Shown one piece after another: positions 9,138 to 55,300 of a DNA stretch of 64,000 nt. The notes under the pieces are model-generated. The model worked only from the letters and a program-made list of their open reading frames with translations. It was not told the DNA's origin and searched no databases. How positions within the stretch are numbered: the first letter of the stretch is position 1; each line of letters opens with the position of its first letter. Origin of the DNA: Candidatus Falkowbacteria bacterium RIFOXYC2_FULL_36_12 (GTDB lineage Bacteria > Patescibacteriota > Patescibacteriia > UBA11705); assembly GCA_001778235.1 (NCBI GenBank), contig MFGJ01000008.1:61313-125312 (forward strand), in the 5' to 3' direction. Made by a program: the position numbers and the translations under genes.

Positions 9138-10030
9138 AAACTTGATGCTAAAATTGCAATTCCACTAATTATTAAAATGATCCCGGCCGATTTTTGGATT
9201 AATTCCAATCCTTCAATTTTTTCTTTGACCAATCTTGGGAACAATCTACCCCCAATTATTACTAAACCAACCAGTAAAACATACTGCGATCCTTGCAGAG
9301 CATTGGCCAAGGTAACACTACCCAGACTAAATGCATAATTTAATAAAACAAAAGCTAAAGCCGCCAAAACCATAGTGCCAGCAAAAGCGAAAAATTTTCC
9401 CCAAGAAAGCTTTTTGAAAAGTTTTACAATATCATTACGAGCGTCAAAATCGAAAATCAAGACAATAGCTGCCAGCAGTGAACCAGCTCTCATCCAGATA
9501 AAAGCACTCCAAAAATCCTGAATCTCAAAAGCATATTTTGTCAGAAAATATGAAAAAGCAAACAATAACCCAGCCCAAACAGTCGTCATAAACGCCTTGG
9601 CAGTAAACTTTTTTTGATCTTTTGCCATTGTAATAACAACCGTTCCCAAAACCAAAAGTAAAAAAGCAACAGTTTCCGTCAACCCCAATCTTTCATGCAA
9701 AAAAACAAAGGCCAAAATCAGAGTCACAATCGGTATGGTCGCACCTGAAATCGGAACAACAGTTGAGGCATCAAATTTTTTCAACACTAAATACAAATAA
9801 TATAAAGCAAAAATAAAACTTGCGCCTGCTAAAATATTTATAAAAAATTCAAAACAACTTGGCACCTGGAGCAACCATGGAGCAACTATAAAAGCCAAGG
9901 CTCCAAGACCGCCAATTAAAATCGCAAAAACTTTTTCATTTGAAATAAGTTTTTCCAAAATAACTTTAGTTAAAATAAAAACTAAAGCATTTAAACAATG
10001 AGCCACCAGAACAATTAATAACCAAATCAT
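9134..10030 (-). CDS. EamA/DMT-superfamily permease (10 TM)
   Basis: About ten hydrophobic helices in two repeated halves; 298 aa. Confidence 0.6.
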   Translation of the reverse strand: MIWLLIVLVAHCLNALVFILTKVILEKLISNEKVFAILIGGLGALAFIVAPWLLQVPSCFEFFINILAGASFIFALYYLYLVLKKFDASTVVPISGATIPIVTLILAFVFLHERLGLTETVAFLLLVLGTVVITMAKDQKKFTAKAFMTTVWAGLLFAFSYFLTKYAFEIQDFWSAFIWMRAGSLLAAIVLIFDFDARNDIVKLFKKLSWGKFFAFAGTMVLAALAFVLLNYAFSLGSVTLANALQGSQYVLLVGLVIIGGRLFPRLVKEKIEGLELIQKSAGIILIISGIAILASSL

Positions 10031-11228: not shown

Positions 11229-11842
11229 ATTGTTCTATTCCAATTATACCATTAAATTTGATGATAAACAAAAATCCCGCACAAACTGGGGATTTCTTTA
11301 CAAATCAAAATAAACCAAATATCACACACAATATTTCAACATCACAATATTACAAACTCTTTCCAACCACAAACAATCTCATCCAAACCCACATATTTAA
11401 AGCATCGAAAGTGAACATCACGGGGGTCTGGGGGGATTCTGCGCGTAATCAATGCAATAGGGATGAACAATGCAATTCGCATTGAATCCCCCCAGCACTT
11501 TTTCGTCCTTTTTGGTGTCAAAAAGGACCCGCAACGCGGAACCGAAACAAATATCTCTATATCTCAATAGCAATGGTGACAAAAGCATGCACCGAACTTG
11601 CTCGCCCTGTCGCATGACAGGGCTTGCCATGCAATTAAACTTATTTACAGTGCGCAGTTTCGGTGTAACACGCAGAGCGCCTGCCTACCCTGCCTACCCT
11701 GCCTACCGGCAGGCAGGCGGCAGGCAGGTAACCAATTACTTTACAAAAAGAATAACCCCCACAAATTAACAAAAAACCTTACTAAATCGTAAGGCTTTTT
11801 TCTAACCATATTTCCGACTTTATTTCCAACTTATTTCATCTT
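11229..11842. repeat. Mosaic intergenic repeat region with members of the window-wide GC-rich palindromic repeat families
   Basis: Contains aagcatcgaaagtgaacatcacgggggtctggggggattctgcgcgtaatcaat (compare 42941-43000 and 54909-54940), hairpins caatgc..gcattg and gtccttttt..aaaaaggac, and cctgcctaccggcaggcagg (compare 43419-43440). No ORF is credible here. Confidence 0.6.
11771..11802 (-). terminator. Bidirectional intrinsic terminator downstream of the 11843..13219 gene
   Basis: The hairpin ccttac-taaatc-gtaagg is flanked by an A-run and a T-run (aaaaaaccttactaaatcgtaaggctttttt). Confidence 0.6.
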
Positions 11843-20842: not shown

Positions 20843-21052
20843 AACAATATTTATTAATTTAAAATAAGACTCTTGCCTGCCGACCTGTCCACCGAAGCTC
20901 TAAAGAGCATAGGAGGAAGCTGAAGTTAGCGTAGGCAAGGCTTCCGAAGAACATCTTAACTTTTACAATTTTATATATAAAAAAGTTTAGATACAAAAAT
21001 ATACTACCAAAAAACCCAGCATAAGTCAATTCTATTTATAATATTAATCCAT

Positions 21053-22375: not shown

Positions 22376-22738
22376 ATAATTTCTTAAGATATAACCACAA
22401 TCTTGAAAGCATTGGGGGCTAAAAATTTTATTTTGTCATCCTGAATCCTGTCTGCCGAAAGGCAGGTTGTTTCAGGATATAACAAAAATAATCAAACTAT
22501 CCCTTTATACTCTGAAATCCATCTTCGTTAAAACTTCGCTGGACAAGCAAGTTCAGAGTGACAAATTTACATGTAGAAACCAAAAATACCAGCTAACCTT
22601 CCTTGTCCGCCCTCATCATGCAGTCAAAACAGAGTCCGAGTGCTTTCTGAACTATAAACTACTCAATACCTTAACTAAATCATTATATCTCATCACTAAT
22701 TTTTGTAACCTTTTGTAATTATTTTGTATTTTTGTAAT
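22376..22738. repeat. Mosaic intergenic repeat region
   Basis: ctgaatcctgtctgccgaaaggcaggttgtttcaggat (compare 41821-41858) and atccctttatactctgaaatccatcttcgttaaaacttcgctggacaagcaagttcagagtgacaaatt (about 70 bp, nearly identical at 55059-55128; reverse complement partly present at 42139-42176). Confidence 0.65.
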
Positions 22739-39794: not shown

Positions 39795-41591
39795 TCACTT
39801 CTTCTTCTCAATCTTCTGCTTAACTTCATCAATTAATTGTTCCAATTTCAAGCTTCTCTGTTCATCTTCTCCCTTTAATCTTACTTGAAATTCCCCACTC
39901 TCAATTTCCTTATCACCAATTACCAACATATATGGCACTTTTTCTTGTTCAGCTCTACGAATTTTATTTCCCACAGTTTCATTGCTCATATCCATCTCCA
40001 CACGAAAATTTTCTTTTTTAAATTGATCAGCCAGATCCATAACATATTGATGATGCTTTTCTCCAACTGAAATCAATTTTATCTGACATGGTGAGAGCCA
40101 AACTGGAAATAGACCAGTATAGTGTTCAATCAATAAACCAATAAATCTCTCAAACGAACCAAACAATGCCCGATGAAGCATGTACGGTCTTTCATTTTCA
40201 CCATCAGCATTTACAAAAGTCATATCAAATCTTTCTGGTAAATTAAAATCAAACTGCAAAGTTGAACATTGCCATTCTCTGCCAAGAGCATCTCTTACCT
40301 TGTAGTCAAGTTTTGGTCCATAAAAAGCTGCTTCACCATACTCTTTTTCATATTCAATACCAAGATCTTTTGCCACTTTTTCCAATAAATTCTCTGTAAA
40401 TTCCCAACCTTCATCATTACCTGCATACTTATCTTTATTCTTTGGATCGCGCAAAGACAAATAAATCTTGTATTTAGCAAAACCAAATGAATCAAAAATA
40501 AACTTGATAAAATTCGCCACCCGTTTCAATTCTTCTTCAACTTGTTCTTTACTACAAATAATATGCGCGTCATCTTGAGTAAAACCTCGAACTCGAGTCA
40601 ATCCAGACAATTCTCCTGACTTTTCATAACGATAAACCGTACCACATTCAGCCCATCGAAGTGGCAAATCTCGATAAGACCATTGTTCAGACTTGAAAAT
40701 CTGTACATGAAAAGGACAATTCATTGGTTTGAGTAAATATTCTTCCTTTAGACCTTCAACTTGAATTCCTTCTTGTGCTTCTTTTAATGATTTACTCACT
40801 TCTAAAACCGGATACATTGAATCATTATAAAAATTCCAATGGCCAGAAGTCTCCCAGAGCTCTCTTGACCCAATATGCGGACTTCTTACGAGCTGATAAC
40901 CATTCTCGAGATGTGCTTTGTACCAAAAATCTTCAATAATTCGCCAGAGCATTGCACCCTTTGGTTTCCAACAAACCAAACCTTGACCGACTTTTCGATC
41001 AATCAAAAACAAATTTTTTCCAATCACCCTATGATCTCTTTTTTCAGCTTCTTTCAACATTTCCACATAATTATTCAATTCTTCTTCAGTGGCAAAAGCC
41101 AACCCATAGATTCTCTGCAACATTTTATTTTTTTCATCTCCCCGCCAATAAGCACCTGCCAATTTCTGAAGTTTAAATGCTCCAATTTGATTAGTTGAGT
41201 CAACATGAGGACCTCGGCACATATCCTCAAACACAACATTCCCATTACCATCAATATTTTTATAAAAGCTGATTTCACTTTCTCCCTGTTTTTCCAATTC
41301 TTCAATTAACTCCAATTTATACGGATTGTTTTTCAATTTTTCTTTTGCTTCTTCAATAGTCAGTTTACAATTTTCAAATTTCTGATTATTGGCAACAATC
41401 TTTTTCATTTCTTTTTCAATTTTTTTCAAATCTTCTGGAATAAAAGATTTATCACCCAAATCAAAATCATAATAAAATCCATTATCAATATCTGGCCCAA
41501 TTGCCAATTTTGTTTCTGGATAAACTTTTAATACTGCTTGCGCCATAATATGAGCAAGCGAATGTCTCATTTTTTCTAAATTTTCATTCAT
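39795..41591 (-). CDS. thrS: Threonyl-tRNA synthetase
   Basis: MRHSLAHIMAQAV (second additional domain), a class II core with motifs 2 and 3 (HRALFGSFERFIG) and a C-terminal anticodon-binding domain; 598 aa. Confidence 0.92.
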   Translation of the reverse strand: MNENLEKMRHSLAHIMAQAVLKVYPETKLAIGPDIDNGFYYDFDLGDKSFIPEDLKKIEKEMKKIVANNQKFENCKLTIEEAKEKLKNNPYKLELIEELEKQGESEISFYKNIDGNGNVVFEDMCRGPHVDSTNQIGAFKLQKLAGAYWRGDEKNKMLQRIYGLAFATEEELNNYVEMLKEAEKRDHRVIGKNLFLIDRKVGQGLVCWKPKGAMLWRIIEDFWYKAHLENGYQLVRSPHIGSRELWETSGHWNFYNDSMYPVLEVSKSLKEAQEGIQVEGLKEEYLLKPMNCPFHVQIFKSEQWSYRDLPLRWAECGTVYRYEKSGELSGLTRVRGFTQDDAHIICSKEQVEEELKRVANFIKFIFDSFGFAKYKIYLSLRDPKNKDKYAGNDEGWEFTENLLEKVAKDLGIEYEKEYGEAAFYGPKLDYKVRDALGREWQCSTLQFDFNLPERFDMTFVNADGENERPYMLHRALFGSFERFIGLLIEHYTGLFPVWLSPCQIKLISVGEKHHQYVMDLADQFKKENFRVEMDMSNETVGNKIRRAEQEKVPYMLVIGDKEIESGEFQVRLKGEDEQRSLKLEQLIDEVKQKIEKKK

Positions 41592-42216
41592 ATAATTTAT
41601 ATTATAAATATTTTTTATCTAAGTTATATTATTCAATTTCTCTCATGATAAAACCACGAACATGACCAAAATCGGAGCTTGCCTGCCGTAATCTTGATGA
41701 AGGCAAGTCTGGGGCGGTAATGCGCGCTACCAACATGGTAATTTGTCACCCTGAACTTGTTTCAGGGTATGATTCTACGCCCCTCACTTCTCACCCCTGA
41801 ACTAAATTCAGGGCAGGCTCTGAATCCTGTCTGCCGAAAGGCAGGTTGGTTCAGGATCTCCCAATTTGTCACCCTGAACTTGATTCAGGGTATGATTCTT
41901 CAAAATTCAAATTAATTTTTCCATTCCTTCCTCTAATGTCAATTCAGGAGACTCTGAAACAAGTTCAGAGTGACGGGACCACACACCACTCGTCATCCTG
42001 AACCCTACACTCGTCATCCTGAACCCTACACTCGTCATCCTGAACTTGTTTCAGGATCTCCGGGTACTGTTTTCAGGATCTCCCACTTGTCACCCTGAAT
42101 TTACTTGTCCATCGACTTGTCCGTCGAAGCTCCCAAAAGAGCGTAGTCGGAAGTTTTAACGAAGATGGATTTCAGGGTATAATTCTTCAAAATTCAAATC
42201 AAAACTTATACCCAAA
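41592..42216. repeat. Dense mosaic of short repeat modules, including a 21-bp tandem repeat
   Basis: Contains cacgaacatga...ggagcttgcctgccgtaatcttgatgaaggcaagtctggggcggtaatgcgcgctaccaacat (module B); gtcaccctgaacttgtttcagggtatgattc twice (module A); tgaatcctgtctgccgaaaggcaggttggttcaggat (module C); a tandem actcgtcatcctgaaccctac x about 2.7 at 41986-42050; and gaagttttaacgaagatggatttcaggg (the reverse complement of the module at 22514 and 55073). Confidence 0.75.
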
Positions 42217-42654
42217 CTACTTTTCCAAAATAAAGGTCGTCGGACCATCATTTATCAATTCAATTTGCATATATGACTGAAATTTGCCAGTAGCCACATG
42301 TAATCCTGTTTGCTCAAATTTTTTCACAAATTTTTCATACATTTCATTTGCTTTTTGTGCTTCTTCAGCCTGAAAAAAATCAGGTCGTCTTCCCTTGCTA
42401 CAATTCCCACTCAAAGTAAATTGAGAAACTATCATCACTTCTCCATTTATATCAATTAAACTTTTATCAAATTCACTTCCTTCTCCAGCAAATATCCGTA
42501 AATTTTTTATTTTATCAACCAAATAATCAATTTTATCATCTGTATCACCTTTATCAATTCCAAGTAAAATTAAAACTCCTTTGTTAATCTTACCAACAAT
42601 TTTTTCCTCAACCTTAACCACCGCTTCATTCACTCTTTGTAATACAACTTTCAT
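42217..42654 (-). CDS. dtd: D-aminoacyl-tRNA deacylase
   Basis: MKVVLQRV...SQFTL...NDGPTTF conserved Dtd motifs; 145 aa. Confidence 0.85.
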   Translation of the reverse strand: MKVVLQRVNEAVVKVEEKIVGKINKGVLILLGIDKGDTDDKIDYLVDKIKNLRIFAGEGSEFDKSLIDINGEVMIVSQFTLSGNCSKGRRPDFFQAEEAQKANEMYEKFVKKFEQTGLHVATGKFQSYMQIELINDGPTTFILEK

Positions 42655-43627
42655 AAATTTAATAAAAAAAGACTAAGAATACTTAGTCTTGGGGCCCTTC
42701 TAATCAGCTATCAGGATTACCTGACATCCGAAATTTCAACGAAGGGTGTTTCCACCCAAGTTTCTTGAATTACTCAAATCAATAATCCAAAACACTCAAT
42801 TTCTTCACTTGTTACGCAGTTTAGTTGATCTCTCAATCAATTTTCAAACCACAATAGTCTGAAAAAACAGCTTGGTAGTCTATTCAATCACTGCAATTTT
42901 AGTATAATATTTAATTTTAATCTTGTCAAATTTAACAACATACTTAAAGCATCGAACATGAACATCACGAGAGCCTGTGGGGATTCTGCACATAATCAAT
43001 CCCGTAATCTCAAAAGAACTTGCTTTAGCAAAATCAATCACTAACTTTAAACCCCACGAACCTGACGAACCTCGGGGCTTGCCTGCCGTAATCTTGATGA
43101 AGGCAGGTCTGGGGCGGCAATGCGCGCCACCAACATACTCACTTGTCACCCTGAACTTGTTTCAGGGTATAAACAATTCCTCTCGTGATAAAACCACGAA
43201 CACGGCAAGCCTCGGGGCTTGCCTGCCGTAATCTTGATGAAGGCAGGTCTGGGGGAATTCTGCATATAATCAAAACTTGCGTTAGCAAAACAATCACCTA
43301 ATTTATACCCCACGAATATGAAAAGCATCGGGGTCTGGGGTTTTCGTTGCTGTCATGAGCGCACAAAAGGGTGTTTAAAGGCATTCAATTAGAAAACCCC
43401 AGCGCTTTTGTTTCTTTTGCCTGCCTGCCGGTAGGCAGGGCGTCAAAAGAAATCGCAAAGCGAAATCAATCACTTAATCTCAAAAAAACCTGCTTTAGCA
43501 AAACAACAATTTACATTTAGATTTCATTAGTGGTCACTACATTCATTTGCTTCGCCTTTAAACGCAAACACCAGCTACTCTCTGGTAATTTTTAAAACAA
43601 AAAAGAGCTTTTCAGCTCTTTTTTGTT
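42655..43627. repeat. Large (about 970 bp) gene-free mosaic repeat region
   Basis: Two copies of module B (43071-43110 and 43211-43250, each about 40 bp, flanked by cacgaa..ctcgggg and followed once by gcggcaatgcgcgccaccaacat), module A (43145-43168), aagcatcgaacatgaacatcacgagagcctgtggggattctgcacataatcaat (compare 11400), cttgctttagcaaaa..atcac three times, and gcctgcctgccggtaggcaggg. ORFs here are repeat-derived. Confidence 0.75.
43594..43626 (-). terminator. Bidirectional intrinsic terminator after the 43628..44761 gene
   Basis: The hairpin aaaagagct-tttc-agctctttt flanked by an A-run and a T-run. Confidence 0.6.
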
Positions 43628-44761
43628 TTAATCTATTAATACTTCAATTGTAATATTGTCTATAATTGACGGCACACTTCTCACCCAAAACGGACTTAAT
43701 TTCACTTGAACATTTTCAATCTCATCAAAACTAGATAAATAAAGTTCAACACCCTTATCACTCAAACCAACGATTTTATCTTTATTTAATATCTCACTAT
43801 CTTCCCGTAAAACAGTCTCCGCTTCAGCGTGAATTTTTATACTAGCTGTTTTTTCCTCTGCATTATAATTTTGTACAACATATGTCAGATTCTCAATTTT
43901 CATTCTACCAAGTTCACTCTCTGGTGAAAGTTGTGTTCGAAGTCTTGTCGCTGCAATCGTTAATATCTCATCTTGAGCAATTCCAATCAGAGTTGCACTC
44001 ATTTTTTGTTTTACTTTGAAAGTATCAACAACATCATCTGCCCCAGCGCTGATTGTCTCCTCAATTATCTTTTTTGAAACCAAGACCGCAATATGATCTT
44101 TGCCCACTTCGTTTTTGAACTTCTCCACTGCATCTTCATAAAGCTTATTGGTCAGATCTTCTTTCGCTCTAGCAATATCAGATGCTTTTACAATTTTTAT
44201 TGAGGATCCACCACTTTTTAGAGTTGAATTACTTTCAGCATAAACTTCGACTTGCAATGATTCTGATAACCCTGGAATTGTAAATTTTGTCGGAGCCAAT
44301 GATTCAAAGTCCGCAGGATTATCTGCATAGACTTCAGCCGAGATCGAACCTCCGGCTGGTACATCTACTCTATTTTTCAATCGAAGCAACACCCCATCAA
44401 CAGAAAGCAATCTGGTTGTTGCCACCAATGGTTGACTTCTTGTTAATTTATTATAAATCATTACTTGTCCCAAAATATCTCCATCAACACTTTTTGAACC
44501 AGTAGCCTCAAATTCCATTTCCTTTTCAACTTCTGTTTCAAAAACAAACCCATTCAAACTCTCCCCTGTCACCTTATCACTTTGTGTTTCTATTCCAGCA
44601 ATAAAATCCGTTGTAGCCAACCCTTTTTTCGGAGTAATCTGAATCAAAGCCTTGCTGAATGTAAAATAAAAAATGACAAAAATAAGTGCGATTGAAAGAA
44701 TCACAAAAATCGCAATAAATTTAACATAATTTTTAGACACGCCAACTTTTTCACCACGCAT
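43628..44761 (-). CDS. Hypothetical membrane-anchored protein (377 aa)
   Basis: An N-terminal transmembrane helix followed by a large extracytoplasmic domain; no motif recognised. Confidence 0.5.
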   Translation of the reverse strand: MRGEKVGVSKNYVKFIAIFVILSIALIFVIFYFTFSKALIQITPKKGLATTDFIAGIETQSDKVTGESLNGFVFETEVEKEMEFEATGSKSVDGDILGQVMIYNKLTRSQPLVATTRLLSVDGVLLRLKNRVDVPAGGSISAEVYADNPADFESLAPTKFTIPGLSESLQVEVYAESNSTLKSGGSSIKIVKASDIARAKEDLTNKLYEDAVEKFKNEVGKDHIAVLVSKKIIEETISAGADDVVDTFKVKQKMSATLIGIAQDEILTIAATRLRTQLSPESELGRMKIENLTYVVQNYNAEEKTASIKIHAEAETVLREDSEILNKDKIVGLSDKGVELYLSSFDEIENVQVKLSPFWVRSVPSIIDNITIEVLID

Positions 44762-44854: not shown

Positions 44855-47800
44855 TTACTGTTTAATTTTAACTGAATTTTTACCCAAAAGGTCACATATC
44901 GCTTGATCAAAACCAGGACAATATTTGACTTGAAAATTTGTTTTTATTGTCTTATCACCAACCTTGAAATATAGCCCATTTGTCCCTGGAAATCGCCTGA
45001 AAACCACTTTTACTCTTTCTGCTAATTCATGACTTCCACCTTTAGGGTAATCTATTAAAATATTTTTCTTTTCAAGTCTTCTTGGTTGAAAACCTTTTAT
45101 TTGATTTAATAATCCTTGCAAATTATCTTTTGTCACTTCCCAAACCATATTTGCCAATATTTTATCATCATCATCTTTATCACTCAAATTACCATTAACC
45201 ACAATAATTTTTTCTTCTACCAACATACTACCAATTTCTTGATATAATTTTGGGAAAATCAAAACTTCCAATCCAAACAAACTATTTTCAATCCGTACAA
45301 ACAACATTGGATCACCTTTTGCCGTAATTATTTTATGCACATTTGTTATTACTCCAGCAGTTAAAATTTGTTTTTCTCCATTTTTATTTCTTAGTTCAAC
45401 AATCTTATGAAGAGGAACTATAATATCTGAAAAATATGGCTCAAATTCTGTAAAAGGATGCTCCGTAACATATAATCCGAGAAATTCTTTCTCCCATGAT
45501 AAACGCTGTTCCTTGGTTGCTGGCTCTATTTCAAGCAATTGCAATTTTGGCAACCCACTTTGTCCCTTTGTTGCAAATAAATTGGTCTGGACAGTTGTTC
45601 TTTCTCTCTCAACTTCTTTGATAAACAATAATATCCTATCAATATTTTCCAAGATTCTATTTCTCTCCTCAAAATTATCCAGAGCTCCACTTTTAGCTAA
45701 ACCTTCAAGTGATTTTTTATTAAAATCTTTTGATTGAATTCGTAGCAGTAAATCTTCAAAATCAGCGAAAACACCCTTTTCTCTTCTATTTTTTATAATA
45801 ACTTTTGCAATATTTTCTCCAAAATTTCTAATTGCCTGTAAACCAAAACGGATTGTCGGATTATTAGTCTTCAGTGAATCAGCTACCACAGTAAAAGTAC
45901 GAAAACTCTCATTGATGTCAGGCGGTAAAACCTCAATGCCCATTTGTTTACATTCATCAATCTCAATCGCCACTCTATCCATATTCTCCTGATCGCTGGT
46001 CAGAAGTGAAGCCATAAATTCAGCTGGATAATTTGCCTTGAGATAAGCAGTTTGATACGAAATCAAAGCATAGCAAGCAGCATGAGACTTATTAAATCCA
46101 TATTCTGCAAACTTCTCCATACTGGCAAAAGTGTCTTCAGCTAATCTCTTTGGCAATTTATTTTTTTCACAACCAGCAACAAACTCTACTTTCATTTTAG
46201 CCATCAAATCGGCGATTTTTTTTCCCATAGCCTTACGCAAAGTATCAGCTTGACCGCCAGTAAACCCAGCCATATCTTTTGACAACTGCATCACTTGCTC
46301 TTGATAAACAATTACTCCATAAGTATTTTTCAGAGACTCCTCCATTATTTTGTGAGCAAAGACTATTTCTTTTCGACCATGTTTACGATCAATAAATTCA
46401 TCAACCATGCCCGAATTCAATGGACCTGGACGATACAAAGCGACCATCGCCACCAAATCTTCAAATTGAGTTGGTTTTAATTTTCTTAAATACTTTTTCA
46501 TTCCACTTGATTCAAATTGAAAAACTCCGGTTGTCTTACCTTCTTGAAACAACTTATAAGTTTTTTCATTATCAAGCTCAATATTATCCAAATCAATTTT
46601 TTTACCGTGAATTTTATAAATAACTTCAAGTGCATGTTCAATAATCGTCAGATTTTTCAACCCGAGAAAATCCATTTTCAATAAACCAAGATCTTCAACC
46701 GGATGCAATGAATATTGAGAAACAACATCATTTTCTCCAGTTGCAGAATATTGAATTGGAGTATATTCAGTCAAAACTTTCGGAGTAATCAACACTCCGC
46801 AAGCATGAGTTGAACTATGTCTTGCCACTCCTTCAAGTTTTCTGGAAAAATTCAACAATCTTTTAGCATCAGAATTGGATTCATACAACTCTTTCAATTC
46901 AACAGTTTGATTTATTGCCGTATCAATTGTCATACCCATAGGAATCAATTTTGCCACTTTATCACAAAATGAATACGGTACATCTAACACCCGACCAACA
47001 TCTCGTACTGCCGCTCGCGCCGCCATTGTCCCAAAAGTTATAATTTGGGAAACATGATCTTTACCATATTTTTCTTCAACATATCGAATAACATCCACTC
47101 TCCTCACATCACCAAAATCAGTATCAATATCAGGCATAGATACTCGATCAGGATTTAAAAATCTTTCAAACAATAAATCATATTTCAATGGTTCTAAATT
47201 TGTTATCTGTGTCAAATAAGCCACCAGACTTCCAGCTGCTGAACCACGCCCCGGACCAACAAGTATATTATTATTCTTTGCCCAAGTAATAAAATCCTGG
47301 GTGATTAAAAAATAAGCAGCATAACCAGTTTTTTCAATCACCGACAATTCATAATTCATCCTGTCAACAATCTTTTTTTCCTCATCTGATTCAGGCTTAT
47401 CAGCCTCAAAGCCATATCTTTTTTGCATCCCCTTTTTACACTCTGTAACCAAGGCATCAAATGGCGACCTACCTTCAGGCAAATCAAAAACCGGTAACTG
47501 AATTTCTCCCAACTTGATTTCAACATTACACATTTCAGCAACTTTTATTGTATTTTCAACAACCTCTGGATTTGCTCGAAAATTATCAACCATCTGCTGC
47601 GATGTATACATTGAAAAATCTTCCCCCAAATAACTCATTCTATTTTCATCGGTAATTTTTTTCTTCGTCTGCAAACAAATCAAAATATCATGAGCTTCAG
47701 CATCTTCAGTATTTAAATAATGCACATCATTTGTCGCCACAATCGGAATATCCAATTTTTTCCCAATTTTGAATATCGCATCATTTACAATCTTTTGTTT

Positions 47801-48340
47801 TGCTAAGTTTGGATGATGCTGAACTTCCAAATAATAATTTCCTTTGCCAAACAACTCTAAATATTTTTCTGCAACTTTTTCTGCTTCTTCGATTGTTCGA
47901 TTCAAAATCGCATTGGCGATTTCTCCTGCTTGACAAGCAGACAAACATATCAATCCTTCTTTATATTTATTTAAAAGTTCCCAATCAATTCTTGGTTTAT
48001 AATAAAATCCTTCAATATGAGCAATTGAAGTCAACTTGATTAAATTCTTATACCCTTGATTATTCTTTGCTAACAAAATTACATGAAATCTTTTTTCTTT
48101 TGATGAATCTTTTACTTTCAAACCATGTTCGGCAATATAGGCTTCCACTCCAATTATTGGTTTTATACCTGCCTTATTACACTTTTGATAAAATTCAATC
48201 ACGCCATACATCACGCCATGATCAGTCAATGCCAAAGCAGGCATACTGTCTTCAGTTGCCTTCTGTACCAAATCATCAATTTTTGCCAAACCATCAAGCA
48301 AACTATAATGACTGTGAACATGTAGGTGTACAAATTTCAT
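44855..48340 (-). CDS. dnaE: DNA polymerase III alpha subunit
   Basis: An N-terminal PHP domain (MKFVHLHVHSHYSLLDG), polymerase core motifs and an OB-fold; 1161 aa. Confidence 0.92.
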   Translation of the reverse strand: MKFVHLHVHSHYSLLDGLAKIDDLVQKATEDSMPALALTDHGVMYGVIEFYQKCNKAGIKPIIGVEAYIAEHGLKVKDSSKEKRFHVILLAKNNQGYKNLIKLTSIAHIEGFYYKPRIDWELLNKYKEGLICLSACQAGEIANAILNRTIEEAEKVAEKYLELFGKGNYYLEVQHHPNLAKQKIVNDAIFKIGKKLDIPIVATNDVHYLNTEDAEAHDILICLQTKKKITDENRMSYLGEDFSMYTSQQMVDNFRANPEVVENTIKVAEMCNVEIKLGEIQLPVFDLPEGRSPFDALVTECKKGMQKRYGFEADKPESDEEKKIVDRMNYELSVIEKTGYAAYFLITQDFITWAKNNNILVGPGRGSAAGSLVAYLTQITNLEPLKYDLLFERFLNPDRVSMPDIDTDFGDVRRVDVIRYVEEKYGKDHVSQIITFGTMAARAAVRDVGRVLDVPYSFCDKVAKLIPMGMTIDTAINQTVELKELYESNSDAKRLLNFSRKLEGVARHSSTHACGVLITPKVLTEYTPIQYSATGENDVVSQYSLHPVEDLGLLKMDFLGLKNLTIIEHALEVIYKIHGKKIDLDNIELDNEKTYKLFQEGKTTGVFQFESSGMKKYLRKLKPTQFEDLVAMVALYRPGPLNSGMVDEFIDRKHGRKEIVFAHKIMEESLKNTYGVIVYQEQVMQLSKDMAGFTGGQADTLRKAMGKKIADLMAKMKVEFVAGCEKNKLPKRLAEDTFASMEKFAEYGFNKSHAACYALISYQTAYLKANYPAEFMASLLTSDQENMDRVAIEIDECKQMGIEVLPPDINESFRTFTVVADSLKTNNPTIRFGLQAIRNFGENIAKVIIKNRREKGVFADFEDLLLRIQSKDFNKKSLEGLAKSGALDNFEERNRILENIDRILLFIKEVERERTTVQTNLFATKGQSGLPKLQLLEIEPATKEQRLSWEKEFLGLYVTEHPFTEFEPYFSDIIVPLHKIVELRNKNGEKQILTAGVITNVHKIITAKGDPMLFVRIENSLFGLEVLIFPKLYQEIGSMLVEEKIIVVNGNLSDKDDDDKILANMVWEVTKDNLQGLLNQIKGFQPRRLEKKNILIDYPKGGSHELAERVKVVFRRFPGTNGLYFKVGDKTIKTNFQVKYCPGFDQAICDLLGKNSVKIKQ

Positions 48341-48577: not shown

Positions 48578-48622
48578 TAGATGAAATGTTCCTTACAACT
48601 AAACCCACAGAAAGGAGCCAAA

Positions 48623-51600
48623 ATGCGCATTCCAGACCTAGATTCCTTGAAATATTTTACTGGTAGCAAAATTAACCGAGAGGTGATTATTCCAAAGACT
48701 GAAATTGATGGCAATAAAATCGGTGATCAATTAATTGCACATCCTTCAAATACTAATTTTCGAGACGATCTCCGTGGTCACATCTATACAATAGTTGCTT
48801 TCACCAATGATACCTATAATAAAATATCTGCAATTATGCAATGTGGCGATTTATTGAATAAATGCTTTACATCAGTAGTTGCTGACCTACATGAAAAACA
48901 TATTAGAATCAGAAGTGGTAACACTTTTTTCAGCCAAAATGGAAATAGCTATATTGCCACAGACTCAACCAATCTAGCTGGTTTTTGCGTCAGAGACGAA
49001 CTAGTATGGAAAAATACAGCTGAAGTACCCCAGTGGTTACTATCACAAGATTTATGGCTTAAAAGAAAAGTTATTGTTGGATTCACAAATAGCGCTGAAG
49101 CAATTGTACAAGTTGATGACAAATATCATACCAAACTGACTCTCGACCAATTAACAAGCTTTAACCGAAAGACAAGTGTAATTAGTAGAAATAAAGAATT
49201 CCACTCAATTAGTAATACAGTAATCACTGTCACCGATACTCTTGAATACGAAGGTTACAAGGTAGGTCAAATACTCACATTAAAGACTGTAGATGCCCAT
49301 CCCCTTGTCAGAAACGCCTCAAAAATTGTTGTTGTTGGTTTTACTTCTATGAACGCTATCGTCAAGCAACTTGATTTAAATCTTTGTGTTTTGGATCATC
49401 TAATGGACACTAATAACTTTTTCCACAACACAGAAATAATCGCCCCAGAATTTCAGCATCTCTATCAAACAACACCAAGGGGAGAAACAGCCATGGACAG
49501 CTACTTCCTGCCAGACATTGTACCAAATCAGCAAAAAATTCTAACAGATAATGAAGTTGATTATACTTACTTTACCAATGTTAGAAATACTCAACTTAAT
49601 ATTGGACATGATGGTATTATCATCAATGATAAGTCTTCACTGGAAATGGCTTGCAACCTCCTAGGAATAATTGTTTCCGCCCAATACCCCACCAACTATG
49701 ACGGCCTGCTATGGTGTAGCTACCACAAAGCCAATGACACTGAATTGGCAACTCAAGTTAACACTCGATCTACCAAAATCAGAAAACACAGCTGGAACAC
49801 TGACACCAATCCATTCATCGCAATTATTCGAGAACACTTATTCCCGTACTTGCCTGAAACGATTGATACAGTCGTCTTGGAAGATGCCAATCATACATAT
49901 CGAGCCCCTACCAACAACAGTACTGAATTCCGCATTTTAAACTGGGCCACACCATCTGAAACTCAACAACTTGAACTCCCATCTCTAATCTTTGCTCGAG
50001 TCAGACCATCCTCAACTTCCTATGCTCAAAGTAATCTTGGTTTCGTCATCAGCTGTCCATATACAAAACACGATGTTGCCGAACTGATCGGAAATGATCT
50101 CTACATTCTATTCGATATTTGTCCACATGGTAGTGCCAATGAACTGGAAATTTTCCAAGAAATTATTATTAGAGTAGCAAAATTCTTGCAAATGCCTGAA
50201 GCAGAACAACGAGCCTATGAAAAAAAACTCTTTGACCGCAATAAAATTGTATTGATAAGTTGGAATAGAACTGGTGATAAAACCGAACAAGCCAAAGTCA
50301 CTGCTTCCCGAGCCTTTCATGAAATCACTGGAAAATTTAGCCAAATTAGAATAACTCCATGCACTAAAGAACAAATACCTCTACAAACAGCACAAAGAGC
50401 TGATCGTCCGGATATTCTATCAATTTATCTCTGGGCAGGTATTTCAGACACTACTCCATCCGTCCCATCTCCCAAAAATATTTTTGGTGTTCAAACTCCC
50501 TATCCAGGTGAAGCAGGCTTTTTTGGTTTTGATGCATCTAACATTAGTTATGTAATTTTTGATGGAGAAACAGCAATCGCTGAAATCCTTGGTAATTCTG
50601 TATATGTTCTTCATTCAATCTTCGCGAAGAATGAACCAAACGAACAAAAACTTTTAGAAATTATTTTTGGTAAAATCGCTGATTTCTACAAACTGTCTGA
50701 AGAAGAACAAAAACAAGCTTATACCGCCCAAGCCCCTATTAGAGATGAAATACAAAAAAAAGCCCAGCAGCTTAAAAAAATACAGATTGTAACCTTTGGC
50801 AACATGCGTGCAACAAAAGCAAAGACTATTGCCACCATCTATGAAGCCTTAATGCCAATTATTGAGAATTACCAGAAAATCAAATTTCACTACGGAAATG
50901 CTAAGACACTTAATAATGATGAAACAACCGCCATAGCCAATTCTGATGGTTGTCTAAACATCTATCTCTGGGCTGGTATTGCTGAATCAAATCCAAATGG
51001 TAAAACCGTCAAATCATTTAAAGAGAAGATGTTTGACATAGCAATCCCCCACTATTCTTCTGAACCTCGCTTCACGCCGTCATACAAAGAATATGTAATT
51101 TTTGATGACGACGAACCCATTGCTGAAATTATCAATGATACGATTATTATTCTAGCTCTAGTTTGTTTTGAAAATGACCCACACGAATATCAGTTACTTT
51201 CTGAAACCCTAAAAAGAGCTACTGCGTATTATGTCCTATCACCTGAACAAAAATCAGCACTTGTAGCTACGCAACGCAAACAAAAAAAATTCCGCTATTT
51301 CAATCTGTCATCATATGACCAGTTTAGGACTCAATTAACTTCTTCAGCCAAAACTCATCTTGTACCATTCCTACCCGACGATATACATATACTCAATTTT
51401 TCCTATGATCAAGTTAAAGTAAAAAATGAACATAAAGCCAAAGCAAAAGAATTTAGTGTCCATCTATACGCTTGCCCAGAAGAACAAATAGCCGACCAAG
51501 TTTATTGCCCGAAAACATTACTTGGGATTGCAGGCACTGATACAGACTACAAAGCTTTCACTCTTGAAGGTGAAAACTTTGCTGTAATAGATGATGATAC

Positions 51601-52426
51601 AAAGTTTATTGTCGCTGAATTAATTGGCAACGATCTCTACATTGGTCTGCCGATTCTACGCTTTCACCATGGTCAGGGCTACTCTACCTCTATCAGCTTG
51701 TGCGAAAAAATATTCCAGCAGATTTCTGTTTTTCTACGAATGACTCCAGAAGAACTAAAACTCTATCACGAAGAAAAACTAAAAAGAAATCGTGATCGTT
51801 ATATCTCTATCACTCTAAAACGGCTTGATACTGAAAGACAAGAACACCTTGATAAAATCAATAAAAATGCCGAAAAAATTCAATCCATGGAAAAAGAACT
51901 GATTGAGCTAAGAAGATCCCAAGCAAAAAGTAGCCGTGAATTACAAATGCTTGATAATGAAAATGATACATTCCGAGCAAAGTTAGCCGAAGAATTTGAT
52001 GCTATTATCAAATTCTCAAAAATTGTTGATATTAAAATTACTTCTGATGGAAATTATCTTGTCTGCACCACAAAAACAATCTATGCACGGCATCCTCAAA
52101 CAAAAAAATATCATCAGATTGGTGCTTTCAAAATCATCATGTCAACTCATGGCAGAATAGACGCAAAAATCGTAACCTTTATTAATCTGACAAAAACCAT
52201 TGTCGGGTATAATGGTGATAATTTTTATGCACCGCATGTCTCGGCCACTGGTCATCCATGTCTTGGAACCATTGAAGGAACTTTACCCCAACTTATTGCC
52301 AGTTATGATTTCAGCGCTGCCATAATTCTCTGTATCGGATTCCTCGAGCAAGTAAACATCCATGACAATTGGGGACGCCATATTGATAAATGGGTACCAA
52401 TCCTTGATCAACTGCCCACCACCTAA
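48623..52426 (+). CDS. Large (about 1267 aa) multidomain protein with a C-terminal E2/UBC-like domain (putative Ubl-conjugating enzyme), an N-terminal unknown region and about 4 internal roughly 160-aa repeat modules
   Basis: The C-terminal roughly 130 aa read ...IVGYNGDNFYAPHVSATGHPCLGTIEGTLPQLIASYDF..., which resembles the UBC active-site region (YHPNI..G.ICLDIL) with a candidate catalytic Cys in HPCLG. Repeated modules carry AE(L/I)(I/L)GN.(L/V)Y(I/V)L ... LSEEEQK / MPEAEQR / LSPEQK / MTPEELK. A coiled coil precedes the E2 part. The start is set at the ATG with an RBS; the track ORF begins 14 codons upstream. Confidence 0.55.
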   Translation: MRIPDLDSLKYFTGSKINREVIIPKTEIDGNKIGDQLIAHPSNTNFRDDLRGHIYTIVAFTNDTYNKISAIMQCGDLLNKCFTSVVADLHEKHIRIRSGNTFFSQNGNSYIATDSTNLAGFCVRDELVWKNTAEVPQWLLSQDLWLKRKVIVGFTNSAEAIVQVDDKYHTKLTLDQLTSFNRKTSVISRNKEFHSISNTVITVTDTLEYEGYKVGQILTLKTVDAHPLVRNASKIVVVGFTSMNAIVKQLDLNLCVLDHLMDTNNFFHNTEIIAPEFQHLYQTTPRGETAMDSYFLPDIVPNQQKILTDNEVDYTYFTNVRNTQLNIGHDGIIINDKSSLEMACNLLGIIVSAQYPTNYDGLLWCSYHKANDTELATQVNTRSTKIRKHSWNTDTNPFIAIIREHLFPYLPETIDTVVLEDANHTYRAPTNNSTEFRILNWATPSETQQLELPSLIFARVRPSSTSYAQSNLGFVISCPYTKHDVAELIGNDLYILFDICPHGSANELEIFQEIIIRVAKFLQMPEAEQRAYEKKLFDRNKIVLISWNRTGDKTEQAKVTASRAFHEITGKFSQIRITPCTKEQIPLQTAQRADRPDILSIYLWAGISDTTPSVPSPKNIFGVQTPYPGEAGFFGFDASNISYVIFDGETAIAEILGNSVYVLHSIFAKNEPNEQKLLEIIFGKIADFYKLSEEEQKQAYTAQAPIRDEIQKKAQQLKKIQIVTFGNMRATKAKTIATIYEALMPIIENYQKIKFHYGNAKTLNNDETTAIANSDGCLNIYLWAGIAESNPNGKTVKSFKEKMFDIAIPHYSSEPRFTPSYKEYVIFDDDEPIAEIINDTIIILALVCFENDPHEYQLLSETLKRATAYYVLSPEQKSALVATQRKQKKFRYFNLSSYDQFRTQLTSSAKTHLVPFLPDDIHILNFSYDQVKVKNEHKAKAKEFSVHLYACPEEQIADQVYCPKTLLGIAGTDTDYKAFTLEGENFAVIDDDTKFIVAELIGNDLYIGLPILRFHHGQGYSTSISLCEKIFQQISVFLRMTPEELKLYHEEKLKRNRDRYISITLKRLDTERQEHLDKINKNAEKIQSMEKELIELRRSQAKSSRELQMLDNENDTFRAKLAEEFDAIIKFSKIVDIKITSDGNYLVCTTKTIYARHPQTKKYHQIGAFKIIMSTHGRIDAKIVTFINLTKTIVGYNGDNFYAPHVSATGHPCLGTIEGTLPQLIASYDFSAAIILCIGFLEQVNIHDNWGRHIDKWVPILDQLPTT

Positions 52427-52443
52427 GGGAGGAGAACATAAAC

Positions 52444-53508
52444 ATGGCTGGAGAAAGCTTCTTTTCCGCAATGATGAAAGCTTTTTGGCTTGGTAGATCA
52501 ACTCCACCAGTACCTGTTCAAAGAAGATTATCAACCAGACAACCAACCTACTTTTCTCCAATTAAAACCTCACCTGAAATTTTTATCTCACAAGAAATCA
52601 TTCCACTAATTCTAATTAGCGCCAAAGCTTATGCCAAAATATGGTATTATATCAGAAGTGCTATGAATTTAAGAGATGAAGAAGTCAGTTGGTTTGGAAC
52701 AGTTGATTGGGACAAAAAAACTCACATCATGACCATTGACGATGTTTTCATTCTGAAACAAAACAATACAACCATGAGTACTTCAATTGCTCCCAATGCC
52801 CTCATTGAATTCTGGCAATCTCAACCTGAAGAAGTTACCGCTCGAATTGCTTTTTGGGGACACTATCACCCACATGGCTGTACAGATCCATCACCAAAGG
52901 ACAATGAACAACTATTAGAATTTGCTGACAACAATGATTTCTTCATTAGAGGGATTTTCACTGCTGATGGCAAACTTTGTTTCACGGTTATGCTGACATA
53001 CGACAATAAACCCAACATCATTGTTATGGATGCTCCATGGGATCATGTTGACCCGAGTAACTTCTTTGACTCATCAGTTCAAACCCAAACTGAAAAAGAC
53101 TTTGCAGATGCAGTAAAAACATTTGTGCCTCCACCCAATCGAAGAAGCCGAACACATCATATTCCTCCAAACGATAGAAGATTTGTTCAGGCAACAGATC
53201 CTATTATTCCACCGTATGCCTCCCAAAATGGAACTCATGATATTAAAGCATACCCACTTGCTGGCACAATTGATCATAGACTAAGCCCAGTTATTCCCAC
53301 TTTACCAAGCGCACCAATCACTCCAACTTTTACTTCACCACAAAGAACCGGCTCTGCGACTATAACATTTACCTCTAAACCATCACTCCCTTCCGAAAAC
53401 CATGAACAACCAGAACCATCTTCACCATCTGACCAAAGTCCAGTTGACACTTCTGAAGCACCCACTTCTGATGAAGATCCAGACACAACCACTCTCGAGG
53501 TAAACTAA
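52444..53508 (+). CDS. JAB/JAMM (MPN+) metallopeptidase with a long Pro/Ser/Thr-rich disordered C-terminal tail
   Basis: The conserved Glu (LRDEEVSW) and the JAMM motif H-x-H-x7-S-x2-D read as HYHPHGCTDPSPKD. The RBS gggaggag is present. The C-terminal roughly 150 aa are low complexity. Confidence 0.7.
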   Translation: MAGESFFSAMMKAFWLGRSTPPVPVQRRLSTRQPTYFSPIKTSPEIFISQEIIPLILISAKAYAKIWYYIRSAMNLRDEEVSWFGTVDWDKKTHIMTIDDVFILKQNNTTMSTSIAPNALIEFWQSQPEEVTARIAFWGHYHPHGCTDPSPKDNEQLLEFADNNDFFIRGIFTADGKLCFTVMLTYDNKPNIIVMDAPWDHVDPSNFFDSSVQTQTEKDFADAVKTFVPPPNRRSRTHHIPPNDRRFVQATDPIIPPYASQNGTHDIKAYPLAGTIDHRLSPVIPTLPSAPITPTFTSPQRTGSATITFTSKPSLPSENHEQPEPSSPSDQSPVDTSEAPTSDEDPDTTTLEVN

Positions 53509-54201
53509 ATGTCAACCACACTAAACGAACATCTCAACCTTGTCAGACATCAACAACTTTTCAATCCTGCTGACTTGGAAGATCAAGAAATTCATGTGAT
53601 TGGTGTTGGAGCTACTGGTTCTAGAATTGCCTTATTGCTTGCCGAACTTGGAATTGAGAATCTACATCTCTGGGACTATGATACTGTTGAAGCCCACAAT
53701 GTACCCAATCAAGCTTATGGTCTGCAACATGTTGGACAATTAAAGGTTGATGCTATGGCTGAAATCATTGGAAGAGACACCAAAGCCAAAGTCATTACCC
53801 ATAATGAAAAAGTTGATGGCACTCAACATTTCGAAGGTTATGTTTTCCTGCTTGTTGATTCACTTGAAGCTAGACGACAAATCTATCAAGGAGCTCTAAA
53901 ACTAAATCCTCATATCCAAGCAATAATTGAAACCAGGATGGGCCCATTTGAAGGCAGAGTTTATATTTTCAAGCCAATCAATGTCAAACATGCTAGACAA
54001 TGGGAAAGGTCTGTCACACCAACAGTCCCTGTCCTTGCTTCAGCCTGTGGTACTGTACCTACACTTGGTAGCACCGCTACTCTGATTGCAGGTATGGCAG
54101 TCAACCAATTCATGCGTTGGACAAAAAACTCACTTGAAGTTGAAAATGAAATGATTTTTGCCACAAATCCATGGACAATCTTGACATTTAATTGGGAATA
54201 G
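53509..54201 (+). CDS. E1-like adenylating enzyme (ThiF/MoeB/HesA family), translationally coupled to the JAB gene
   Basis: A Rossmann glycine loop, VIGVGATGSRIALLLAELG, with the conserved acidic pair (WDYD), a degenerate second motif EAHNVPNQ in place of SNLNRQ, and a candidate catalytic Cys in LASACGT. Its ATG directly abuts the JAB stop (taaatg). Confidence 0.75.
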   Translation: MSTTLNEHLNLVRHQQLFNPADLEDQEIHVIGVGATGSRIALLLAELGIENLHLWDYDTVEAHNVPNQAYGLQHVGQLKVDAMAEIIGRDTKAKVITHNEKVDGTQHFEGYVFLLVDSLEARRQIYQGALKLNPHIQAIIETRMGPFEGRVYIFKPINVKHARQWERSVTPTVPVLASACGTVPTLGSTATLIAGMAVNQFMRWTKNSLEVENEMIFATNPWTILTFNWE

Positions 54202-54276
54202 TTTATACTCATATATCAAACAATCAACTCCTTCAACCACCCCCAAACGCCCTTAACCAAGGGAGGGAGAAACACC

Positions 54277-54666
54277 ATGCCTGACACTAATGATGAGTTG
54301 AAATTCACAATTGGACAAACTCTAAGAGAAATTGCTAGAACTAATGGTCTTATCCCTGAAAACTTCAAATTCTGTGTTAATGGACGCCGAGTAACTCTTG
54401 ATTACAATGTCTTGGAAGGTGATGTTATTTCTGCTGAATCAATTGATGATTCAGTTATCACTGTCCGAGTCCAGAAAATTCCTGGCAAGGCTAACTACTT
54501 TGATCTTCCTCATGGTGCAACCGTAGAACAGGCACTTAATGTTGCCGGATATAGAAACCTCACATCAGAATTTGAAGTCAAACGAGGTACAGAATATGTT
54601 GCCCTCAATGCTGAAGTCTTTCATAGTGACACTATCGTACTAGCAAGACCAACTACTGGTAATTAA
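54277..54666 (+). CDS. Small tandem beta-grasp (ubiquitin-like) protein ending in Gly-Asn
   Basis: A 129-aa protein. Two roughly 60-aa segments each show ThiS/MoaD-like hydrophobic periodicity (KFTIGQTLREIA...VNGRRV...GDVIS and ITVRVQKIPGK...GATVEQAL...EVKRGTEYV...SDTIVLARPTTGN). A strong RBS, gggagggag, is present and it is the last gene before the terminator. The fold is assigned by inference only. Confidence 0.45.
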   Translation: MPDTNDELKFTIGQTLREIARTNGLIPENFKFCVNGRRVTLDYNVLEGDVISAESIDDSVITVRVQKIPGKANYFDLPHGATVEQALNVAGYRNLTSEFEVKRGTEYVALNAEVFHSDTIVLARPTTGN

Positions 54667-54789: not shown

Positions 54790-55300
54790 ATTAAGCATTT
54801 ACTTTAATATTAAATCCCACGAACATGATAAGCCTCGGGGCTTGCCTGCCGTAATCTTGATGAAGGCAGGTCTGGGGGCTTTCTTGTCGTCAACACCACC
54901 ACTAAGAAAGCATCAAACATGAACATCTCAGGGGCTTGCCTGCCGTAATCTTGATGAAGGCAGGTCTGGAGCGGCAATGCGCGCTACCAACACGCTCATT
55001 TGTCACCCCTGAAATTAATTCAGGGCAGGCTCTGAATTTATTTCAGGGTATAATCAAGCTATCCCTTTATACTCTGAAATCCATCTTCGTTAAAACTTCG
55101 CTGGACAAGCAAGTTCAGAGTGACAAATTGAAATATATAAACAACAATAACAACTAACGCATCTTGCCCGTCTTCATCGTGAAGTCGAGACAGGCTATGC
55201 TTTCAGGCAGGGTGTCAAAAAAACTTGCTTTAGCAAAATGATAACTTACTTTAGTGAAACTTATCATCTTCTTTAATGTTAAATCCCACGAGCTGTCGCT
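54790..55300. repeat. Mosaic repeat region downstream of the ubiquitin-like operon
   Basis: Two module B copies (54833-54872 and 54932-54971) with cacgaacatga..ctcgggg and aagcatcaaacatgaacatctcagggg leaders; gcggcaatgcgcgctaccaacac; module A variants (cacccctgaaattaattcagggcaggctctgaatttatttcagggtat); a 70-bp copy of atccctttatactctgaaatccatcttcgttaaaacttcgctggacaagcaagttcagagtgacaaatt (identical to 22500-22570); and cttgctttagcaaaatgat. Confidence 0.75.

Follow-up and report, generated by a model that had tools for sequence, protein, structure and literature searches.

In the genome of Candidatus Falkowbacteria bacterium RIFOXYC2_FULL_36_12, dtd is separated from thrS by 625 bp (positions 41592-42216) and from a gene for a 377-aa protein by 973 bp (42655-43627). 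Positions are those of the window, meaning the whole 64,000-nucleotide stretch of contig MFGJ01000008.1 that was analysed. Both gaps are probably mosaic clusters, akin to bacterial interspersed mosaic elements (BIMEs), of small non-autonomous palindromic repeats that have spread through single-stranded DNA and accumulated in one Parcubacteria lineage. Three layers of repeat are nested within one another: repetitive extragenic palindromes (REPs) with a CGTC or TGTC tag, hairpins with a C[CT]TG (CYTG) tag, and a larger structured unit, element E, that occurs in full, truncated and internally deleted forms arranged head to tail. What the sequences show is the anatomy and nesting of these units, compensatory changes in their stems, a strand bias, their distribution across phyla, and an expansion of the spacers that is specific to the lineage. 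The repeats are real, and the kind of system is not new. One component falls in a superfamily already in print; no earlier description was found of element E or of the hairpins tagged C[CT]TG.

REP-type repeats were first described decades ago, and the first layer of the clusters, module A, has the same general design. Each unit consists of a TGTC or CGTC tag, a stem of 8-9 bp (A[CT]CCTGAA, with arms ACCCTGAA and TTCAGGGT), a loop of 3-5 nt, and a short tail. The loop motif CTTGT also occurs in proteobacterial copies, and its variants in the window are cttga, ctaaa, attaa and ctagt. The tag stands before the stem at 41744, 41867, 41951 (-), 42033, 43144, 22434, 22509 (-), and 55071 (-). The 64-kb window contains at least 12 copies in five clusters (Table 1), all of which sit between unidirectional or convergent open reading frames (ORFs), and every window copy is intergenic. 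The 22-nt core of module A recurs exactly in plasmids of Novosphingobium, Sphingobium, and Sphingomonas (Sphingomonadaceae) and of Treponema, and in 37 IMG/VR contigs of 33-71% GC, mostly as inverted pairs; about 0.1 chance matches would be expected for that core if the collection holds some 1e11 bases.

These attributes place module A in the known cross-phylum CGTC/TGTC REP superfamily surveyed by Di Nocera, De Gregorio and Rocco (2013, PMC3733652). Members of that superfamily, which includes Rickettsia RPE-4 and RPE-6 and Neisseria dRS3, have a CGTC tag that is often TGTC (CCTC is accepted), stems of 8-9 bp, loops of 4-5 nt of a few recurrent types, and a tail fitting CCA. They frequently form inverted dimers, lie between unidirectional or convergent genes, reach high copy numbers genome-wide, and occur mainly in alpha-proteobacteria but also in Bacteroidetes, Spirochaetes, Chlorobi, and Thermotogae; the survey associates no dedicated transposase with them, and no mobilising enzyme is known (PMC3733652). 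Module A has the same tag, stem, loop, inverted dimers with 20-100-bp spacers, intergenic location, occasional clustering in mosaic regions, and lack of a transposase alongside, and its core is identical to copies from the Sphingomonadaceae, a group in which the survey reports CGTC REPs. It differs in its host phylum, Patescibacteria, which is not among the five reported, in its tails, which are ATGA, ATAA, or CTCC rather than CCA (the high-GC IMG/VR copies have CCAT), and in the nested hairpins held in the loops of several copies. Patescibacteria are likewise not mentioned in the REP/RAYT literature that was found (RAYT, REP-associated tyrosine transposase), nor in a 2025 survey. Two IMG/VR contigs of 71% GC, L066 and L072, repeat the tag and 5' arm alone in tandem (CTCGTCAC.CTGA....) ahead of a complete CGTC REP, the arrangement also seen at 41987-42028 of the window.

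The second layer consists of GC-rich hairpins with a C[CT]TG tag, among them the module B hairpin. Its five window copies are all on the + strand and are 72-100% identical over 81 nt, and the hairpin within them reads CTTG-CCTGCC-GTAATCTTGATGAA-GGCAGG. Module C is a REP-type stem (CTGAAT...GTTCAG) whose loop holds a CCTG-tagged hairpin, CCTGTCTGCC-GAAA-GGCAGG, at 41826-41845, and window hairpins of the same tag-plus-stem design carry other loops of GAAA, GGTA, and GAA..helix..GTA types. The 26-mer of hairpin B has a single match among species-representative genomes, in a Cyclobacteriaceae metagenome-assembled genome, and its inner 20-mer turns up, mostly in intergenic DNA, in soil, sediment, and groundwater metagenomes (48 contigs, 33-64% GC). 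Among 52 distinct instances, 45 have C[CT]TG 7-8 nt upstream of GCC. The lower stem covaries, one pair being CG in 29 instances vs UA in 9 and another CG in 18 vs UA in 6; the covariation score was matched by none of 500 shuffles, and slid controls fell short of half the pairing. Among mismatches on the tagged strand, G.T exceeds A.C by 34 to 6, one conserved G/T position supplying most of the imbalance.

There is also a strand bias. Of 35 non-redundant contigs that bear hairpin B and measure at least 2 kb, 28 have the tag on the strand that is locally richer in C (P=5e-4); in the window, the five B hairpins and every E-type unit lie on the + strand, which is C-rich. Orientation with respect to called ORFs is ambiguous, the upstream ORF sharing the strand in 19 cases and opposing it in 10; ORF calls are unreliable in high-GC contigs. 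In one member of the hairpin class the 14-nt loop (GTAATCTTGATGAA) is the same in Patescibacteria and in soil bacteria with 64% GC, an identity that would imply recognition by a conserved factor. We tentatively raise the possibility that the C[CT]TG hairpins constitute a third cross-phylum superfamily of tagged REPs, beside GTAG and CGTC, whose members insert as folded single strands into hairpin loops.

Several other ideas about hairpin B were entertained and discarded. Hammerhead, k-turn, and sarcin-ricin-like readings, made by eye, do not fit at the core and have no supporting model. A plasmid of Picosynechococcus sp. PCC 7003 (NZ_CP016476.1, 1501-1526) matches the B loop and 3' arm at 25 of 26 positions inside a cation:proton antiporter gene, where the match encodes VILMKAGLG and has orthologous counterparts in three other strains. 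Derivation of the hairpin from an antiporter motif, an idea that also rested on a Na/H exchanger gene adjoining the cluster in contig L044, was rejected: the E-value is ~0.01-0.1, the L044 exchanger DNA differs at the motif, and a further hit in L020 is a chance coding match. The Picosynechococcus match is judged a coincidence. Viral scans with the B 20-mer and with the tail of element E returned 0 matches each; a degenerate CCTG-GAAA hairpin pattern gave 3, about the chance expectation, and the 45 matches to the 15-mer CATCGGGGTCTGGGG are due to chance and lie in coding regions. Literature searches by sequence string gave no result.

The only recurrent Pfam family near B hairpins is ORF6N, a KilA-N-like DNA-binding domain, found in 5 of 127 ORFs. 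The scan lists no members, and the matches are attributed to ORFs of ~250 aa lying 90-250 nt from tandem B-type hairpins in L012, L015, L027, L033, and L055; these loci (soil, 55-58% GC) are probably orthologous rather than an independent association. In L032 (1680-1710; also in L019) a B hairpin lies in frame within a 449-codon ORF that looks in sequence like a lamin-tail-domain surface protein, and encodes ..PARRNLDEGG... This resembles the in-frame genic insertion of Rickettsia palindromic elements, which differ from the window copies in that the latter are all intergenic.

The third layer, element E, has a three-helix core of ~150 nt, extended to ~320 nt by its tail. A 5' box (CCACGAACAYG...CATCGGGG) is followed by a long hairpin, P1, closed by CTGGGG.../...CCCCAG, then by P2 (NNNCTTTTTG/CAAAAAGNNN) and a small P3; hairpin B is an optional insert, and some copies add a conserved tail ending at a terminator. 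Pairing in P1-P3 is kept with different sequences across seven copies, and in P1 7 of 10 pairs show double changes. Two of the seven are in the window (43310-43462 and 11391-11539), one is in each of the contigs L009, L014, L024, and L044, and one is in L056, a syntenic relative with 71% ThrRS identity, where it stands in sense with the terminator of the T-box-like leader on one side and thrS on the other. The copy at 43310-43462 folds far better than its shuffles (z = -4.96); it carries a CCTG-tagged hairpin in the P2 loop (43420-43439), and its 5' junction is empty of hairpin B. Between 42938 and 43627 the units run head to tail as a truncated E, an E 5' unit with a REP, another truncated E, and a full E with its tail, the tail ending at a bidirectional intrinsic terminator (43599-43624) shared with the convergent 377-aa gene. 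The copy at 11391 is followed by an array of CCTGCC-type arms (11680-11728), and the homologous L009 cluster matches it at 89.5% over 124 nt.

Paralogous copies, set side by side, show four kinds of site that are empty in one copy and filled in another. Between GGGG and TCTGGGG in element E, some copies have nothing and others the 30-nt tagged B hairpin. Between TTTTG and GCGTC in the P2 loop, the filled version carries CCTGCCTGCCGGTAGGCAGG. In the REP loop, the junction of GAACTTG with TTTCAG is occupied by a 30-nt CTTG hairpin in the REPs at 22510-22563 and 55072-55125. The fourth junction, CATCGA/AGTTTT (CTTGTCCATCGA with AGTTTTAAC), is empty in L009 and L024 and is filled in the window by a further 36-nt CTTG hairpin (42116-42151). 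Every insert compared begins with CYTG, stops at the final base of its 3' arm, shows 0-2 nt of microhomology, and lacks a target duplication. The inserts are placed in loops or between helices, that is, in the single-stranded parts of a folded strand. The tags of modules A, B, and C are CGTC, TGTC, and CYTG rather than GTAG, which appears in the nested hairpins only within internal loops (42116-42151 and 20872-20940).

Neither RAYT enzymes acting on GTAG REPs nor the TnpA enzymes of IS200/IS605 elements duplicate the target, and both act during replication on a single strand. Published work describes lagging-strand targeting and hairpin recognition. GTAG REPs, the REPINs (REP doublets forming hairpins) that RAYT mobilises, and IS200/IS605 elements share with the window repeats a four-base tag beside a hairpin, the lack of target duplication and, apparently, a folded single strand and a strand bias, and the CYTG hairpins appear to work in this manner; the differences are the C[CT]TG tag in place of GTAG and the lack of any RAYT or TnpA gene found in the window. 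By analogy, the units would spread as folded single-stranded DNA, a trans-acting enzyme of the HUH/Y1 kind (RAYT, IS200/IS605 TnpA) would read the hairpin together with its adjacent four-base tag, and new copies would land in single-stranded loops. The resulting clusters would be selfish or neutral, with a likely side effect on how the dtd-thrS transcript, probably T-box-controlled and having to cross the 625-bp cluster, decays or is processed. BIMEs combine REPs in alternating orientation with other conserved motifs and are bound by IHF, gyrase, or Pol I. Several short repeat families are likewise assembled in variable order and orientation into long spacers, also within operons, by E. coli BIMEs and by the mosaic intergenic regions of Neisseria; these differ in their sequences, and hairpin-in-loop nesting is prominent here.

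A number of points weigh against spread by an enzyme acting on single-stranded DNA. A tblastn search with E. coli RayT and a RAYT-like fragment gave nothing in the 64-kb window or in the CPR-type loci (CPR, candidate phyla radiation), and no transposase family is among the 25 families listed of the 101 that match 127 neighbouring ORFs. The initial annotation of this DNA had called the repeat family active; no insertion polymorphism was found among six assemblies, which are identical save for one 79-nt deletion between identical 45-nt copies. The strand bias may relate to transcription rather than replication, because GC skew in short contigs largely reflects gene orientation, and some of the 35 loci may come from related strains. 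The CYTG tag is proposed from the present alignments, and no publication describing such a tag was found. Compensatory stems, GNRA/CUUG-type loops, and the excess of G.T over A.C mismatches would suit an RNA-level function equally well. Finally, the census covers 64 kb of this genome. A single Y1-like trace was seen, in the unrelated low-GC contig L034 (4174-4472; also in L031): an ORF of 93 aa that is similar to the C-terminal half of a Y1 transposase of IS200/RAYT type, the N-terminal HUH part being missing. The match is below threshold (Pfam E=0.004, 17.6 bits vs a cut-off of 23); the start of the ORF falls within a GTAG-tagged hairpin, GTAGGGGCGTATTGCAATACGCCCCTAC, with a B hairpin 1.3 kb away.

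Three other explanations of the clusters deserve mention. In the first, element E and its units are structured small RNA genes or cis-acting RNA elements, the small hairpins being optional peripheral stems and the 'repeats' paralogous RNA genes. The three helices that keep their pairing through compensatory changes, the folding of the window copy, the GAAA and CUUG type loops, and the bias towards G.T mismatches on the tagged strand are all what such genes would predict. Every full cluster has an intrinsic terminator at its end, oriented the same way; these terminators, however, are bidirectional and belong to convergent protein genes, and no promoter with the usual 16-18-nt spacing lies upstream of the units. 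The L056 copy is in sense within the thrS leader, whereas E runs antisense to its neighbouring genes in the window. Truncation, internal deletion, or nesting in other repeats affects many copies, and the small hairpins also stand alone in unrelated phyla and inside ORFs. Rfam at gathering score finds tRNAs only across the whole window, and at E<=5 over 41550-43680 it returns spurious hairpin and terminator matches, including a microRNA model on the REP dimer. For the structured small RNAs suggested in the initial annotation, neither an Rfam match nor a convincing promoter was found, and an RNA-gene origin is judged unlikely.

The second explanation dispenses with an enzyme: the units would multiply through replication slippage, through template switching at hairpins, and through homologous recombination or gene conversion between copies, and the clusters would be by-products of hairpin-prone DNA. 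Some features do look like this, among them the half-site stutters at 41987-42028 (with similar ones in 71%-GC contigs), the partial duplications of tRNA 5' ends that adjoin inserts, and the L005 assembly, which is without 79 nt between two identical 45-nt copies; nor does the published survey associate a transposase with CGTC REPs (PMC3733652). Slippage fails, however, for identical units of 20-30 nt shared by unlinked loci or by phyla that span 33-71% GC, and both the conserved four-base tags and the precise insert boundaries are left unexplained, making purely enzyme-free spread improbable as well. That the modules are classical MITEs (miniature transposable elements with inverted repeats), deletion derivatives of DDE-transposase insertion sequences with terminal inverted repeats and target-site duplications, is highly improbable: the inverted REP pair at 41867-41975 superficially resembles a 109-bp element with inverted ends, but each 'end' is a complete hairpin of the REP superfamily, single hairpins are found alone, no transposase gene is among the 25 families listed for neighbouring ORFs, and no empty/filled comparison reveals a target-site duplication, so that the MITE-like label first given to these repeats is not borne out.

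Returning to the repeats themselves, the extent to which they fill the two gaps can be stated. Counting recurrence (E<=1e-3) elsewhere in the window or in the four contigs that share only the modules with it (L009, L014, L024, and L044), 72% of 41592-42216 and 49% of 42655-43627 recur, the latter rising to an estimated 64% or so once the diverged E core is included. The initial annotation, which had the gaps built almost entirely from modules, overstated the case, most plainly for 42655-42935, which holds no repeats. Its placing of the modules was right and their recurrence is far beyond chance by repeat finding and sensitive self-comparison, with each of the further sites it named (11229-11842, 22376-22738, 54790-55300, 20855-20945, and 3790-3812) confirmed. 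Its view of module A as a perfect palindrome gives way to a tagged stem-loop with an 8-9 bp stem and a 3-5-nt loop. The REP/BIME-like interpretation holds good, module A having most of the defining features of CGTC/TGTC REPs and the clusters mixing several families in both orientations. The family does extend beyond the window, since the same four contigs, similar in composition, share just these modules at 85-95% identity. The ORFs at 42880-43149 and 54936-55157 fall largely inside repeat modules, Pfam gives no hit for the gene called at the first, and their dismissal as repeat-derived is plausible. More generally, GC-rich perfect hairpins are enriched in non-coding DNA, with 37 of 60 in the 15% of the window that is non-coding.

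The clusters are not an assembly artefact, because the same sequence is present in six independent assemblies, among them NCBI GCA_001778075.1 and a 135-kb JGI contig. The single difference among the six is in L005, which is without the 79 nt corresponding to 43115-43193, between two identical 45-nt B copies. Assemblies from the same population break at the repeats, several contigs ending within them (ends at 43064-43082, starts at 42095-42127). The L005 difference and these breakpoints reflect either repeat-mediated deletion polymorphism and recombination or assembly collapse.

The repeat-free portion of the larger gap, 42655-42935, contains a promoter, a T-box-like leader, and a terminator upstream of dtd, all on the - strand. 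The AACTTGGGTGGAA motif, the terminator, and the promoter are present and are kept in relatives, the specifier context is of ACC type, and the corresponding leader in L056 scores 31 bits (E=4e-5), below the Rfam gathering score of 93. The same leader precedes dtd or thrS in five syntenic relatives, a conservation that suggests a reduced CPR variant of the T-box controlling a dtd-thrS operon. On this evidence dtd and thrS probably form one T-box-controlled operon, whose transcript would then have to cross the 625-bp cluster.

It is in comparison with these relatives that the size of the gaps stands out. Their spacers between dtd and thrS, or between the 377-aa-type gene and dtd, measure 112-313 bp, vs 625 and 973 bp here, and in relatives without dtd the distance from the last upstream gene to thrS is 245-540 bp. 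Apart from the single E copy in L056, the syntenic relatives are without the window modules; the spacer expansion is lineage-specific. One relative, L143 (69% ThrRS identity), has a different family of TGTC-tagged hairpins (TGTCATTTCGA...TCGAAATGACA) in its dtd-thrS spacer at 9680-10005, so repeats of this sort seem to land in this spacer recurrently.

CPR genomes are typically ~1 Mb, and long repeat-filled spacers are unexpected in so streamlined a genome. The second tagged hairpin class brings clear nested empty/filled sites together with a strand bias. If the proposed mechanism is true, a small CPR genome rich in both CGTC and CYTG repeats would offer a very short list of candidates for the mobilising enzyme, making the search tractable, and another route to it would be to profile the exact cross-phylum hairpins phylogenetically. 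On a practical level, the clusters break assemblies and yield spurious ORF calls, and by inflating a spacer in the dtd-thrS operon, which is probably T-box-controlled, they may affect expression of an essential tRNA synthetase.

Table 1. Coordinates of repeat units, regulatory features, and genes in the 64-kb window
Feature	Position	Strand	Remarks
Unit U1: E 5' part (CCACGAACATG...CGGAG), B hairpin 41678-41707, box GCGGTAATGCGCGCTACCAACA	41654-41735	+	90% over 117 nt to 43054-43170
TGTC-tagged REP, TGTC-ACCCTGAA-cttgt-TTCAGGGT-at	41744-41770	+	
REP variant CACCCCTGAActaaaTTCAGGG, then module C	41792-41857	+	Repeat families D6, D13
Module C	41820-41857; 22441-22478		
Inverted REP dimer: 41867-41893 (+, TGTC) and 41951-41975 (-, CGTC), 57-nt spacer	41867-41975		Same dimer in L009
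Two tandem 21-nt half-sites (CACTCGTCATCCTGAACCCTA x2, tag and 5' arm only), then complete CGTC REP 42033-42061	41987-42061	+	Family D15
TGTC-tagged REP with doubly nested CTTG hairpins in loop	42088-42180	+	CTTG hairpins 42104-42169, 42116-42151
Unit U5: internally deleted E, 5' part fused directly to tail motif CTTGCTTTAGCAAAA..ATCAC	42938-43050	+	Families D8, D16
Unit U2: E 5' part, B hairpin 43078-43107, GCGGCAATGCGCGCCACCAACA box, TGTC REP 43144-43170	43054-43170	+	
TGTC-tagged REP within unit U2	43144-43170	+	
Unit U3: E 5' part, B hairpin 43218-43247, truncated E tail	43194-43310	+	
Full E core: P1 43334-43402, P2 43410-43453, P3 43454-43462	43310-43462	+	
Conserved E tail (AATCAATCAC..CTGCTTTAGCAAAAC..TTACATTTAGATT..TTCGCCTTTAAAC)	43464-43627	+	83% to L014 over 154 nt, 74% to L024
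Second full E copy: P1 11427-11495, P2 11505-11528, P3 11529-11539	11391-11728	+	
Third cluster: two E 5' units with hairpin B (54841-54870, 54935-54964), REP variants 55004-55057, - strand REP with nested CTTG hairpin 55072-55125	54817-55125		
Tagged B hairpins	41678-41707; 43078-43107; 43218-43247; 54841-54870; 54935-54964	+	
Nested or variant module A copies	22434-22478; 22510-22563 (-); 55072-55125 (-); 3792-3812		
Sigma-70-like promoter TTGACA-17-TATACT	42929-42901	-	11/12
T-box-like leader	42900-42740	-	RF00230 21.4 bits, E=0.007; gathering score 93
Leader terminator	42690-42669	-	
thrS	39795-41591	-	
dtd	42217-42654	-	
377-aa gene, without Pfam match	43628-44761	-	
dnaE	44855-48340	-	

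The window has a GC content of ~34%, its GC skew is strongly negative throughout, and nearly all of its genes are on the - strand. ThrRS homologues place the host in the Patescibacteria (Parcubacteria group), the nearest relatives being 69-73% identical; the closest homologue with a phylum-level name is 70% identical and labelled Candidatus Falkowbacteria.

Repeats are also found at tRNA genes near the start of the window. At 3703-3865, a 55-nt perfect direct repeat duplicates the 5' end of tRNA-Tyr and its upstream region, and the extra copy holds a REP-type palindrome, GCCCTGAActagtTTCAGGGC (3792-3812), where the intact gene reads TTC. The locus looks like a gene whose 5' half was disrupted by a REP and restored by duplication. 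Close by, the first 12 nt of tRNA-Thr (AGCTATGACGGC, + strand) are doubled at 3939-3950 and 3967-3978, the two copies flanking a 16-nt sequence, AGGCAGGTACCAACAA, similar to the 3' arm of the CCTGCC hairpins.

At 48581-54666, a block previously termed the 'Ubl island' comprises three large + strand ORFs (1281, 354, and 129 aa) without Pfam matches that flank a ThiF/E1-like gene (53509-54201), and its GC skew is less negative than that of the remaining window.

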